A stretch of DNA of 32,000 nt from Candidatus Nitrospira inopinata (GCF_001458695.1 NZ_LN885086.1:960001-992000), one strand, 5' to 3'; shown: positions 15,428-31,882, counted from the first letter of the stretch. Notes: generated from the letters alone by a model not told the origin. A program made the numbers and translations.

Positions 15428-16438
15428 CTAAGATGACCAGCCCACGTCGTGGAGCCGATACCGGCCGAGGCCGAAACTCGTGCCTTTGCCGGCGTGGGCG
15501 ACCTCGCCCAGACGAAGCAGCGGCAGAAACGGAGCCAGCGGTCCCTCGAAAACGACGGTGCCGGTCACGCCTCCCAATTCCATTTCCGTCCGTTGACGGG
15601 AAGAATACCGGGTCCAATCCGACCAGGTCAGCGACGAAGACACGGTCCGCACCTCCTGGGCCAGCGCAATCCAGTCACGGAAGGCGACGATCGAGGGATC
15701 GCCGCCGCAGTGGAAATACGAGAGATGCGCGAGGCGTCGTAGGAGCGATCGGATGAGCACGTGAAAATCCAGCCTGGCGGCGAGGTGCTCCCGGTACCGA
15801 ATGCGCAGAGGAGAGAGAATTTCGATTGCGACCCGTTGCGAGAGAGCCGGCTCACCGGCCTCCGGAGGAACGCGCGGCAGGATTCTTCGTTCGGTGAAGG
15901 CCTCGACGCCCCGCAACGTTCGCTCGTCGGCGCCATACACAGGGTGCCGATGACCGTCCAGCCGGCCATCCACCGTGACGAGCGACGCCGTCGTCCGCCG
16001 ACCTCCCAGACCGGCGCGTCCCATCCGTTCCAACGCAAAAATGAAGTGGGGAAGCCACGCTACCGTTCTCCCGAACAGGGTCAGCCCGAGTTCAACGGTC
16101 TGCCCGGCCCCGATGGTTCGCCCGCCCTCCGGCGGGATCAACACGAAGGGGTGAGGCGCCGCCGGATATTTGCGCATGATCTTCGCGTCCGCGGGAGGCG
16201 GCGTCTCAAACACCCACGGATACACGCACCGGTCGCGCAAGGCACAGGGGGGACAGTCGTGAGCGCGCGTGACACAGACCGCCTGCATCAACGCCCAGCC
16301 GAAGGAGCCGCGGAACAGGGACCCGGCATAGACAGGGAGCGCAAGCGGGCCGTCGAGTCGAAAGGTCGCGGTGAAACGGCCGAATGAAAGGGGCAAGCCC
16401 GTCGCATGACCGTGGTCACGGGGACAGGAATCGATCAC
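15428..16438 (-). CDS. cas6: CRISPR-associated endoribonuclease Cas6 (RAMP) with Cys-rich N-terminal segment (336 aa)
   Basis: The C-terminal glycine-rich loop 'GEVAHAGKGTSFGLGRYRL' is typical of Cas6. The N-terminal 'CVTRAHDCPPCALRDRCVYPWVFE' is a pattern I associate with the PF10040/DUF2276-type Cas6. Start set at GTG 16438, which overlaps the cas2 stop (GTGA). The annotated ORF start at 16597 would overlap cas2 by 160 nt with Arg-rich sequence. Confidence 0.72.
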   Translation of the reverse strand: MIDSCPRDHGHATGLPLSFGRFTATFRLDGPLALPVYAGSLFRGSFGWALMQAVCVTRAHDCPPCALRDRCVYPWVFETPPPADAKIMRKYPAAPHPFVLIPPEGGRTIGAGQTVELGLTLFGRTVAWLPHFIFALERMGRAGLGGRRTTASLVTVDGRLDGHRHPVYGADERTLRGVEAFTERRILPRVPPEAGEPALSQRVAIEILSPLRIRYREHLAARLDFHVLIRSLLRRLAHLSYFHCGGDPSIVAFRDWIALAQEVRTVSSSLTWSDWTRYSSRQRTEMELGGVTGTVVFEGPLAPFLPLLRLGEVAHAGKGTSFGLGRYRLHDVGWSS

Positions 16439-16713
16439 GGCAGCATCACCATGGCGCCGTCCGGCGTCCGGTCTCCTGATCCGAGCGAGGCGATGGGTTG
16501 ATCGGACGGCAGCGGGTAAATTCTGACGTCGTCGGCCTTGGCGTCGATCAGCTCCGCCAAGCGTTCGATCGCGTCCGCTCGTTCGGGCCAGGTCCATGAA
16601 CAGAGAAAGACGGAATACTGCATCGGCACGCCCACCCCCTTGAGGTAGCGATGCACGCGGGCCAAGCGACCCTCGTCGGCAATGTCATAGCAAACCAGGT
16701 AGCGCGTTTGCAT
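16435..16713 (-). CDS. cas2: CRISPR-associated endonuclease Cas2 (92 aa)
   Basis: ATG 16713 gives 'MQTRYLVCYDIADEGRLARVHRYLKGVGVPMQYSVFLC...DDVRIYPL', the classic Cas2 ferredoxin-fold pattern (YDI.D..RL.kv...L......Q.SVF.c). It starts 10 nt after the upstream stop. Confidence 0.87.
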   Translation of the reverse strand: MQTRYLVCYDIADEGRLARVHRYLKGVGVPMQYSVFLCSWTWPERADAIERLAELIDAKADDVRIYPLPSDQPIASLGSGDRTPDGAMVMLP

Positions 16714-16723
16714 CAGAGAATCC

Positions 16724-17500
16724 TTATGGCTCCCGCAAGAGCTCCCCGTACTGATCAAGCAGCCGGCCGAGCAGGCGCACAAGACGGGATCGGTGCCGCT
16801 CGAAACTCTCGGCCACGTCGAGAGACAAGGCGGCGCCGGTTTGATCGGCAAGACGTCCCTGCTCCAGCCAAAGCCGGTCGGCATCCGCGCGGATCGCCAT
16901 CGCGCAATCCTTGACGAACCCCAACGACTCCCCGCGATGGATGACGCCGACGTGCGGGTCCCAGCCCGTTTCGGCGATCCGGTCCAGGATCAAGGTATCG
17001 ACGGCCGCGTGAAAGAGGCGACGTTGACGAAGAGCGGCGCCGCGTAGACGGCCGAGACGCTGGACCCATTGTTCATAATCCATGGTCCGCACGCCGTGTC
17101 GTCTCCAGCGAGCGGCAATCACGGCATCCAGGCCGGTCGCCAAGGCCAGCCGTCGCCCCCGTTCCCAGGCCCGTAACCAGCTTGAAACCCGTTCTTGCAC
17201 GGAGGGGTTCTCGATCATCCCGACCTGAAGCCCTCGGCGGGCAAAGAGGCCGGAAGCGCAACTCACGACCATCGCCATTGGTTGCCCGTTTCGACCGACC
17301 AGCGTGACCGGCACTCCCCGCTCGGCGAAGGCCGTCAGGCTCTCGGTGTCGAGCGCGACGTTCCCCGCAATGAGCACGCGCCGAATCAATCGCACCGGCA
17401 CTCGGCGACCGGCCGAGCCAGGCTGTTCGATCCAGAGTGACGGTCCGTCACGGCGGACGGACAGCCCGGGCCGTTCATTGAGAAAGAGAGTCCGATCCAT
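16724..17500 (-). CDS. Cas1-like paralogue, shortened and with eroded active site (258 aa)
   Basis: The N-terminus is collinear with the Cas1 beta-domain (MDRTLFLNERPGLSVRRDGPSLWIEQ...RVLIAGNVALDTESLTAFAERGVPVTLVGRNG). The C-half retains 'GWDPHVGVIHRGESLGFVKDCAMAIR', compared with canonical '[28 protein letters not shown]'. It lacks the 'RERRPPRDPVNALL' segment. It overlaps the cas1 stop by 26 nt. Confidence 0.65.
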   Translation of the reverse strand: MDRTLFLNERPGLSVRRDGPSLWIEQPGSAGRRVPVRLIRRVLIAGNVALDTESLTAFAERGVPVTLVGRNGQPMAMVVSCASGLFARRGLQVGMIENPSVQERVSSWLRAWERGRRLALATGLDAVIAARWRRHGVRTMDYEQWVQRLGRLRGAALRQRRLFHAAVDTLILDRIAETGWDPHVGVIHRGESLGFVKDCAMAIRADADRLWLEQGRLADQTGAALSLDVAESFERHRSRLVRLLGRLLDQYGELLREP

Positions 17501-30295: not shown

Positions 30296-30323
30296 ACGAC
30301 CTGCCGCCTCCTTGCGAACACCG

Positions 30324-30602
30324 TCAGCCGAAATAGAAAAACGCCGGATCCGACGGCGGGACGGCGATGCCCAGCGTCGCGGGTTTGCTGCGGCCGTCGA
30401 GCGTGATGATGTGCACGCGGTCTTCCGTTGCCTCGATCAAACCCTGCAACGTCTCCGTCACGTCGGTCAGCTCAGCGGGCGTGAGCCAACATTCATAGAC
30501 CGACTTCTGCCCGCCGGTGCTGTAGGCCTTGAGCACATCCCGCACCTTATGGAGGCGCCGTTGATCGCACACGTCATAGGCGATGAGATAGAGTCGCCGC
30601 AT
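30324..30602 (-). CDS. cas2: second Cas2 paralogue (92 aa)
   Basis: ATG 30602 gives 'MRRLYLIAYDVCDQRRLHKVRDVLKAYSTGGQKSVYECWL...EDRVHIITL', a Cas2 pattern. It starts 11 nt after the upstream CARF gene stop. Confidence 0.82.
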   Translation of the reverse strand: MRRLYLIAYDVCDQRRLHKVRDVLKAYSTGGQKSVYECWLTPAELTDVTETLQGLIEATEDRVHIITLDGRSKPATLGIAVPPSDPAFFYFG

Positions 30603-30613
30603 AGCCAAGCCCG

Positions 30614-31882
30614 TTATGTCTCGTCCAACGTTGCGAAGGCGATGGCCGGCTGCTCTCCGAGGATCGCGAGCACGACCTCGCGCAAATCCTGATAGCCGGC
30701 TTCGGTGCCCGAGGTCGTTCCATGCGCCAGCCACGACATGTTCCGAGCGGACTGGACTTGCTTAAACCGGTTCTGCTGTTGCTCGAACTGTTGGCCTTCC
30801 GGTTCGCCGAGGGCGGCCAAGAGGCGGTAACTGGCTTCGAGTGGCAGTTTGAGCGTGCCCCCGTCCTCCGGGCGATAGCGGGCCAGGAACTCGGCTCGCA
30901 CCGTTTCCGGAATCGCCTCCACCGGCACTCGATCGGTTCCGCAGCCGAGCCGTCGCTCGATCGCAATCTGGGCTCCCAGCTCAAGTGCGCGATAAAGCCG
31001 GACGATCGCATCGTCGTAGCTGCCTTCCGTGGCCCGACGATCGGCATTGGCCAGCAGGTCGGCGATGAACAGCCGGTGGTAGCGGCGGAACCCACCGGTG
31101 TGTTTGGCGAGTTGTTCCAGCCAGGCGACATTGGCTTCCAGCATGGGAAGCACGGCGGCGTACCGAATGGCGGGATTGGCCTGTACCGCGATCGTCCAGC
31201 GGCTGCGGCAGCGCCCCAACACTTCCAAGGCACGTTGATATTCAAACCGCTCCCAGAGCAGATACCCTTTCGCCACTTCTCCGATCAGCTCGAAGGCCAA
31301 ACGATCCGGCTCCGTGAGGGGTCTTGAAAGGACCGACCGAATGAGCGCCTGGGCTGCCGTGAACTGAAACGTGCGGAAGAAGAGCGCCAACCGTCTCCGC
31401 TCTTCGACAGCGAAGACTGCAAAGGGATCATCTCGCCTGATGATCGCCTCGCTGCCGGTGATGACCACCCCTCGCCCTTCCTTGGATCGTTCGCGCCCAC
31501 CCACATAGACGAACGAAAACCCCTTGCCCACCGTGGCCAGGGCCAGCGCCGCGCTCATCACCTTGGTGCCGCCCGTGAAATCCACGGCCACGCGCTCGGG
31601 TGGAATGTGCAGGTCGGCGAGATGCTCGGCGCATCGAATCGCCTCGGCGTAACAGGTCACGAGATCCTGCGGGTCGCGCGTGATGACCTTGCGATCCCTC
31701 GTGGGAATACCCAGGTCTCGCACCTGATCCTTGATCGCGCCGATCTGTTCGACCGTCTGTTCCGATGCGAAGAAGATGACAACCGTCGGGCTATGTGCCC
31801 GAAGCGTCGTCACAATCGGCTCGATGGAGCCGCCTACCGAGACAATCATGGCGTGAACAGACGAGGTCCTCGTATCGGACAT
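30614..31882 (-). CDS. CRISPR-associated CARF-HEPN protein (Csx1/Csm6-like, Cas02710/TIGR02710-like) (422 aa)
   Basis: SD AAGGAG lies 7 nt upstream of ATG 31882. The Rossmann-like CARF N-domain has 'AMIVSVGGSIEPIV' and 'VAVDFTGGTKVMSAALA'. The C-terminal HEPN R-x6-H motif is 'ARNMSWLAHG' (30722-30745). Confidence 0.75.
   Translation of the reverse strand: MSDTRTSSVHAMIVSVGGSIEPIVTTLRAHSPTVVIFFASEQTVEQIGAIKDQVRDLGIPTRDRKVITRDPQDLVTCYAEAIRCAEHLADLHIPPERVAVDFTGGTKVMSAALALATVGKGFSFVYVGGRERSKEGRGVVITGSEAIIRRDDPFAVFAVEERRRLALFFRTFQFTAAQALIRSVLSRPLTEPDRLAFELIGEVAKGYLLWERFEYQRALEVLGRCRSRWTIAVQANPAIRYAAVLPMLEANVAWLEQLAKHTGGFRRYHRLFIADLLANADRRATEGSYDDAIVRLYRALELGAQIAIERRLGCGTDRVPVEAIPETVRAEFLARYRPEDGGTLKLPLEASYRLLAALGEPEGQQFEQQQNRFKQVQSARNMSWLAHGTTSGTEAGYQDLREVVLAILGEQPAIAFATLDET

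Follow-up and report, generated by a model that had tools for sequence, protein, structure and literature searches.

Insertion of a multicopper-oxidase cassette between cas2 and cas1 of a type III-B CRISPR locus in Candidatus Nitrospira inopinata

The genome of Candidatus Nitrospira inopinata (G000) is one contig of 3,295,117 bp with a G+C content of 59.2%, and the presence of amoA marks the organism as a complete ammonia oxidiser (comammox Nitrospira). [quoted passage not shown] They run in the order csm6, cas2A, cas1, cas1', cas2B, and cas6, and between cas2A and cas1 lies an 11,886-bp plus-strand block headed by the gene of a MnxG-like multicopper oxidase. Comparison with relatives reveals that this metabolic block was inserted into the cas genes of a type III-B locus, most of which lies past the end of the window. 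Genes were called by hidden Markov model scans of the open reading frames (ORFs) with Pfam and NCBIfam/TIGR models, and these scans bear out the gene identities and coordinates given in a preliminary description of the window. The features are listed below, with protein lengths in amino acids (aa).

15428-16597, minus strand: cas6; longest ORF, 389 aa; Pfam CRISPR_Cas6 at 2.1e-19 over residues 258-380
16435-16713, minus strand: cas2B; 92 aa from the Met at 16713; Pfam CRISPR_Cas2 at 4.8e-16, and TIGR01573
16724-17500, minus strand: cas1'; 258 aa; Pfam Cas_Cas1 at 1.9e-10 over residues 11-100 only; TIGR03638 over residues 165-207
17475-18437, minus strand: cas1; 320 aa, full length; Pfam Cas_Cas1 at 3.6e-76 over profile positions 1-282 of 283; TIGR00287 at 2.3e-60
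18442-18451, plus strand: left copy of a direct repeat, CTGCCGCCTC; the start codon of cas1 is 4 nt away
18452-18788, no strand assigned: divergent intergenic region imported with the block; contains the promoter region of the oxidase and, presumably, the promoter that now serves cas1
18789-25703, plus strand: MnxG-like multicopper oxidase; 2304 aa; translation may instead begin later, at 18837
25700-27676, plus strand: propeller-like protein, second cassette gene; 658 aa; weak YNCE and pyrroloquinoline quinone (PQQ)-propeller matches only
27684-28292 and 28171-28884, plus strand: two tandem SCO1/SenC copper-chaperone-like genes; Pfam SCO1-SenC at 2.9e-16 and 8.8e-10
28622-30295, plus strand: cytochrome c-like protein, last cassette gene; one CxxCH motif (CANCH); Pfam cytochrome c matches below threshold
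30301-30310, plus strand: right copy of the direct repeat, CTGCCGCCTC, with the cytochrome stop 5 nt before it and the cas2A stop 13 nt after it
30324-30602, minus strand: cas2A; 92 aa from the Met at 30602; Pfam CRISPR_Cas2 at 9.7e-16, and TIGR01573
30614-31993, minus strand: csm6, a CARF-HEPN effector; 459 aa; TIGR02710 at 6.2e-71; Pfam Csm6 HEPN at 9.5e-37, and Csm6_6H

The foreign block occupies positions 18438-30323, and as previously described, only 28 nt separate the converging stops of the cytochrome gene (30295) and cas2A (30324). The first gene beyond it is cas1, which overlaps cas1' by 26 nt. Both Cas2 proteins exceed the Pfam and TIGR01573 cut-offs; the longest ORF of cas2B reaches 16884, with the Cas2 domain beginning at Met 58. 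Cas6 scores under the cut-off of TIGR01877, and its orthologues, 54-91% identical, are found in all Nitrospira relatives. The first ~54 codons of the cas6 ORF are rich in Arg, overlap cas2B, and when translated resemble out-of-frame sequence, so that the true start probably lies nearer 16438.

The insertion becomes visible once the same genes are followed into related genomes. Cas1 relatives were taken together with 10 kb of DNA on either side, and each gene of the window was located in them. Four loci from Nitrospiraceae with a Cas1 that is 72-76% identical (L042-L045) have an empty site, with csm6, cas2A, cas1, cas1', cas2B, and cas6 lying contiguously. Their neighbours are those of the window, namely the HtrA-like gene, the histidine kinase gene, and, in three of the four, where the locus extends that far, gcvP. 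Read base by base, the distance from the end of cas2A to the cas1 start codon is 21-45 nt in these loci. Two others (L062 and L063, from genomes G286 and G135) are likewise contiguous from cas2A to cas6, and over the six empty Nitrospira loci the gap measures 8-45 nt. This is exactly the single-strand cas cluster with two cas2 genes that the preliminary description had expected to see if the block were removed. That description also proposed insertion or inversion of a metabolic cassette: insertion is upheld by the empty sites with matching neighbours, by the phylogeny, and by the 10-nt repeat, while inversion is not, since the empty sites just lack the block.

The filled site is present in six closer relatives: JZ-3_Bin7 (G041), W63 (G044), SZTDM-2_Bin289 (G043), JZ-4_Bin198 (G045), DGJ02_3_Bin65 (G042), and G018. 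The oxidase gene stands directly upstream of cas1 in all of them except G018, whose assembly stops within cas1 and, of the cassette, includes just the last three genes, the oxidase gene itself not being found there. At the other edge, the last oxidase-operon genes adjoin cas2A-csm6 in five of the six (all but G044), and one contig spans both junctions in G041 (507 kb) and likewise in G042 (112 kb). A tree built from Cas1 joined to Cas1' places the six filled loci in which both genes are complete in a single clade (Shimodaira-Hasegawa-like approximate likelihood ratio test support, SH-aLRT, 100). This clade is nested among empty-site loci, with the empty-site locus L045 as its sister, and a single change explains the distribution. 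These comparisons establish that an insertion took place, where it did so, that it had one origin, and how old it is relative to the species splits.

The edge on the cas2A side varies in length among filled genomes. The gap of 28 nt in G000 is replaced in G018 by an additional gene for a PAS-domain methyl-accepting chemotaxis protein of 648 aa (L037:2605-5878), and in G045 there is an additional unidentified ORF of 394 aa between the last cassette gene and cas2A (L058:4772-6281).

At the base level, each edge of the block carries one copy of the 10-mer CTGCCGCCTC, and these two are its only occurrences in the 32-kb window, where chance alone would give 0.26 copies. On the cas strand, the left copy reads GAGGCGGCAG and spans the ribosome-binding region of cas1. 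The right junction, on the same strand, consists of TGA-CGGTGTTCGCAAGGAGGCGGCAG followed by oxidase-operon DNA, and the left junction of GAGGCGGCAG-ATCA-ATG, where ATG is the cas1 start. Placed together, the two junctions look like an old spacer of ~25 nt with its last 10 nt doubled. The repeat could be a target-site duplication or the microhomology of a single-crossover integration, for either of which it is suggestive only. The intergenic region between the left repeat and the oxidase gene (18452-18788) is conserved in G041 and G042, is not found in the cassettes of two genomes described below (G010 and G008), and is absent from empty sites. Within it, G000 has a local duplication of 71 nt that the aligned relatives G041 and G042 do not have. 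Two 16-nt motifs, TCGCAAGCGCGGAAAC and TCGCAAGGGCGGAAAC, occur 71 nt apart in this region (18516-18602); as they are present in single copy in G041 and G042, the pair is attributed to the local duplication in G000. The motifs were also considered as vestigial CRISPR repeats and rejected, as neither of them matches any of the genome's three types of repeat. A terminator scan of the junctions returned one terminator-like hairpin, inside the coding end of cas2A.

The inserted cassette consists of five genes. Its oxidase reaches 2133 bits against NF041487 (copper_ox_MnxG) in three matched stretches, under the cut-off of 3100 bits, hence the name "MnxG-like." The Pfam scan gave no match for this 2304-aa protein, and its translation shows HxH and HCH copper motifs. 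It resembles the manganese-oxidising MnxG of Pseudomonas putida GB-1 (NF041487) in homology along the protein, in copper-site motifs, and in its companion SCO1/SenC genes. The window protein differs in being ~400 aa longer than the model and in scoring below the equivalog cut-off. A preprint describes manganese oxidation by the Nitrospira homologues as untested (bioRxiv 10.1101/2024.12.25.630300). The propeller-like gene is syntenic in G010 and in the filled relatives, and the cytochrome c-like gene in G010, G018, G041, G042, and G043; the true start of the latter is probably downstream of 28622.

The cassette is not confined to the cas locus. In G010, the same five genes sit between orthologues of two G000 genes, and in G000 those two genes are 60 nt apart (~1,742,863-1,742,924), so that this second site is empty there. 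The cassette of G008 has a third context, and a more distant paralogous cassette is found at yet another place in G001, G005, G011, and G016. Members of the ~2300-aa oxidase family with 50-60% identity occur in Lysobacter, Nitrosomonas, Ca. Nitrospira nitrosa, and Caldimonas. As judged from these different loci in different genomes and from relatives in several taxa, the cassette travels widely. Outside the filled clade, even the closest homologues have an identity of only ~60%, and they belong to several phyla; therefore no donor can be named. At the G010 site, the flanks are too diverged for a target duplication to be read.

In its general appearance, the block resembles the insertions made by genomic islands and composite transposons: it is a discrete multi-gene unit with a short flanking direct repeat, occupies different sites in related genomes, and has left empty sites preserved in others. 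Unlike those elements, it has no transposase, integrase, tRNA target, or terminal inverted repeats. A casposon was considered as well and discarded, since cas1 lies outside the block, terminal inverted repeats are lacking, and the repeat measures 10 nt instead of the 14-15 bp of a casposon's target-site duplication.

The cas genes themselves belong to a larger locus. A k-mer scan of the whole genome found three CRISPR arrays, and none of them lies within the 32-kb window. The nearest one starts at position 993,770 of the genome (window-equivalent 33770), 1.77 kb past the window's end. Its 118 repeats are 36 nt long, and its 117 spacers measure 32-40 nt. The sole variant repeat is the copy adjoining csm6, and when the repeat is reverse-complemented, its end reads ATTAAGAC, similar to the usual ATTGAAAC tag. 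From these two features we infer that the array is transcribed on the minus strand, with its leader at the far end. Past the array, and on the same strand, come card1, an MntA/HEPN pair, cmr6, cmr5, cmr4, an unknown ORF of 223 aa, and cmr3. They are followed by cas10/cmr2 (982 aa; G000 1009032-1011980, minus strand; TIGR02577 at 1.2e-63, above cut-off), a 374-aa ORF, and two more genes for CARF proteins, from families TIGR02619 and NE0113. Cmr6 (TIGR01898), Cmr5 (TIGR01881), and Cmr4 (TIGR02580) score above their cut-offs; Cmr3 (TIGR01888) reaches 78.7 bits against a cut-off of 100.4, but is matched along its length. The 374-aa ORF upstream of cas10 has no NCBIfam match and occupies the position expected for cmr1, for which it is a candidate by place.

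All this makes the locus a complete type III-B system of ~42 kb, foreign block included. Its whole order on the minus strand is: two CARF genes, the cmr1 candidate, cas10/cmr2, cmr3, the 223-aa ORF, cmr4, cmr5, cmr6, MntA/HEPN, card1, the array, a 250-aa ORF, csm6, cas2A, the inserted block, cas1, cas1', cas2B, and cas6; the window holds its end on the presumed trailer side. The statement that no array or effector occurs in 32 kb is accurate inside the window and does not hold for the locus, and the proposal of an adaptation and processing set serving arrays elsewhere in the genome has to be abandoned, since an array of 118 repeats and a full type III-B effector belong to the system itself and lie just past the window. 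For annotation, this means a complete type III-B locus instead of an orphan adaptation set, the missing array being an effect of the window's edge. The likeness to type III-B (Cmr) loci with cyclic-oligoadenylate accessory nucleases (Csm6/Csx1, Card1) extends to Cas10/Cmr2, Cmr3-Cmr6, Cas6, and a long array of 36-nt repeats, and the CARF effectors here are the TIGR02710 Csm6, Card1, the NE0113-family protein, and the TIGR02619 protein. In contrast to such loci, the adaptation genes are found where the array presumably has its trailer end, an unrelated operon of 11.9 kb divides them, and no model recognised a Cmr1, the 374-aa ORF being in its place.

Further details of this region can be noted. 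Two spacers of the 118-repeat array (L001:3770-12140) are each present twice in identical copies. The toxin-antitoxin pair between cmr6 and card1 (L001:13460-14180, G000 1003460-1004180) comprises an MntA-like nucleotidyltransferase and a HEPN protein of the HI0074 family. The 250-aa ORF between the array and csm6 (L001:2292-3044, G000 992292-993044) has no Pfam or NCBIfam match and is conserved in G041, G043, and G045 with 79-99% identity. The two other CRISPR loci of the genome (G000 2455179-2460270 and 2529173-2532852) have cas1 genes of their own, in open frames of 585 and 349 aa, and different repeats of 36-37 nt ending in ATTGAAGC and ATTGAAAC.

The cas genes have persisted on both sides of the block. 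Between filled genomes, the ratio of nonsynonymous to synonymous substitution rates (omega, dN/dS) is 0.08-0.21 for cas2A, cas1, cas1', cas2B, and cas6, with dS up to ~1.0; by gene it is 0.08-0.10 for cas2A, 0.10-0.14 for cas2B, 0.12-0.14 for cas1', and 0.14-0.18 for cas1. These values are close to those from comparisons with an empty-site genome. Spacer turnover was compared only between G000 (117 spacers) and G041 (67 spacers), as the arrays of the other filled draft genomes were not assembled; no spacer is shared, and the repeats differ by one base. Purifying selection and the fully different array content of two filled genomes argue that the insertion did not destroy the immune system, and that adaptation and processing remained in use.

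The genes that were separated by the block form an adaptation unit of their own. Besides G000, 400 Nitrospirota genomes were sampled with a Cas1' profile search, and relatives of Cas1' were found in 39 of them (40/401 with G000). Among 29 loci fetched from other genomes (L062-L090), cas2A-cas1-cas1'-cas2B is complete and uninterrupted in 26, often followed by cas6. Two more are uninterrupted and cut by the end of a contig, L084 before cas2B and L088 with the last ~30 codons of cas2A, which brings the total to 28/29. The last, L066, has a cas1 fragment abutting the final ~107 residues of cas1', then cas2B and cas6, without cas2A. Identity to the window proteins in these loci is 42-51% for Cas1, ~56-67% for Cas2A, ~43-55% for Cas2B, and 25-35% for Cas1'. 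Cas2A and Cas2B are 38% identical to each other, which makes the two cas2 genes old paralogues instead of a recent duplication. On this comparative evidence, cas2A-cas1-cas1'-cas2B is an old four-gene unit conserved across the phylum. The preliminary description had raised the idea of two fused adaptation modules, and a recent fusion in this genome is contradicted by that conservation.

Cas1' resembles Cas1 in the N-terminal domain only, and a profile-profile comparison of the two aligned just the N-terminal 68 residues. A single-sequence search of solved structures with Cas1' gave no match. When the family profile is aligned to the solved Cas1 4xtk, the GIEG motif with the catalytic Glu falls in a gap of the profile, the DPH...H...D region is partly kept, and D198 is invariant, which leaves the catalytic Glu-His-Asp/Glu set incomplete. 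Cas1' is most likely a non-catalytic partner, probably without the catalytic Glu. In Cas1, E161, H226, D238, and E241 are invariant in 10 orthologues, with their catalytic role assigned by motif. The unit shares with the canonical Cas1-Cas2 integrase (e.g., that of E. coli type I-E) a full-length Cas1 with conserved acidic and His motifs, and a Cas2. It differs from the canonical pair in having four genes, the additional ones being a second Cas2 and a 258-aa Cas1 paralogue that is missing the catalytic-Glu motif. In a literature search, no paper describing the cas2A-cas1-cas1'-cas2B unit was found. For CRISPR biology, this background unit with its probably inactive Cas1 is the more interesting object, as it is widespread in Nitrospirota and, as far as could be found, unstudied. 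The filled clade provides a natural uncoupling of cas2A from cas1, cas1', and cas2B.

A model of the event can then be proposed, and we consider it very probable that the cassette was inserted once into the cas2A-cas1 spacer of a complete type III-B locus, the immune genes persisting afterward. In this model, the five genes, ~11.86 kb in all, entered a spacer of ~21-27 nt in the ancestor of a single Nitrospira sub-clade, in opposite orientation and just upstream of the cas1 start codon. The cassette brought along its own upstream region of ~340 nt and left the 10-nt direct repeat at its edges. Since then, transcription of cas1-cas1'-cas2B-cas6 would presumably start in the imported region (18452-18788), and cas2A would be expressed as part of the csm6 transcript.

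Several observations count against this model. Only G000 and G043 have the 10-nt repeat intact; it is reduced to 7 nt in G041 and replaced by a different, imperfect repeat in G042, so a true target-site duplication is only one possible reading. A consensus scan of 18300-18900 gave no sigma-70 match, and thus no cas1 promoter was found. None of the five cassette proteins has a recombinase (transposase or integrase) domain in Pfam or NCBIfam, and the block edges have no terminal inverted repeats. The composition of the block is no outlier, with a tetranucleotide distance at the 92nd percentile of genome windows; a comparison of block and flanks (tetranucleotides, and G+C at third codon positions) was run and is uninformative, since the cas flanks score like the block. 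There is decay in some filled genomes, with solitary repeats only in G018 and an in-frame TAG in the csm6 of G042. Finally, the tree is a locus tree, and the filled allele could have spread via recombination. G043 is a mosaic relative to G000, with protein identities of 95-99% over the oxidase operon, cas2A, and csm6, and of 79-89% over cas1, cas1', cas2B, and cas6; this suggests a recombination breakpoint near the cas1 junction in that genome (L040/L057).

These last points lead to the alternative that fares best, although we regard it as unlikely: after one insertion, the filled allele would have spread by homologous recombination besides descent, or the cassette would have been re-inserted at the same site in the G042 lineage. 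It draws on the mosaic of G043 (97-99% identity to G000 on the oxidase/csm6 side against 79-89% from cas1 to cas6), on the junction repeats of G042, which are alike each other and unlike the G000 repeat, and on the variable space between the cytochrome gene and cas2A, with its chemoreceptor gene in G018 and its 394-aa ORF in G045. However, the cassette's upstream region can be aligned in G000, G041, and G042, and the filled loci are monophyletic, both of which fit one event.

It is highly improbable that the interrupted state was ancestral and that the contiguous loci arose by precise deletion of the cassette. Both states do occur at the same chromosomal position, and the flanking direct repeats could mediate excision, but the filled loci are a single clade nested within the empty-site loci, and the 28 uninterrupted loci of other Nitrospirota genomes, tightly spaced and from many families, would require several independent losses precise to the base. 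Even less credible is the separate acquisition of two modules, csm6-cas2A on one side and cas1-cas1'-cas2B-cas6 on the other, around a resident oxidase operon. The low identity of the two cas2 genes and the weak similarity of the two cas1-family genes would suit this account; yet the four genes are one conserved unit across the phylum, with ORFs that overlap or nearly abut, empty-site Nitrospira have the same flanking neighbours and no oxidase operon, and the oxidase cassette is found at other loci elsewhere. An assembly or binning artefact has next to no chance, for nothing was found in its support beyond the close relatives being metagenome-assembled drafts, G000 is a single 3.295-Mb contig, and both junctions recur in independent assemblies, twice on single long contigs.

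A single insertion into the cas2A-cas1 spacer is an ordinary but neatly documented event in a known type of system. For evolution, it offers a clean case, with empty and filled sites read at the base level, of a metabolic operon inside a cas operon whose immune genes stayed under selection across species-level divergence, and it indicates that the MnxG-like cassette moves among Nitrospira as a five-gene unit. We think it improbable that the insertion is more than a neutral scar, whether because cas1-cas6 share divergent control with the manganese-oxidase-like operon, or because the cassette is a mobile, recombinase-less unit directed at short GC-rich sites and mobilised in trans. Were control shared, spacer acquisition and CRISPR RNA processing would be co-regulated with metal or oxidative physiology. 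Under either version, the natural split of a four-subunit Cas2A-Cas1-Cas1'-Cas2B integrase would show that co-transcription of its genes is unnecessary.

Two other parts of the window deserve mention. Between the histidine kinase gene and cas6 lies a gene for an HtrA/DegP-type serine protease, with a trypsin-like domain and two PDZ domains (13834-15354). It was not found in G018, W63, and G042, where the kinase gene abuts cas6, and is present in the other relatives, including those with an empty site. Farther upstream, a 750-aa ORF (5304-7556) contains three stretches of ~150-nt tandem repeats with 66-72% matches (5478-7519), which encode a repeated unit of ~50 aa with weak matches to DUF1936.

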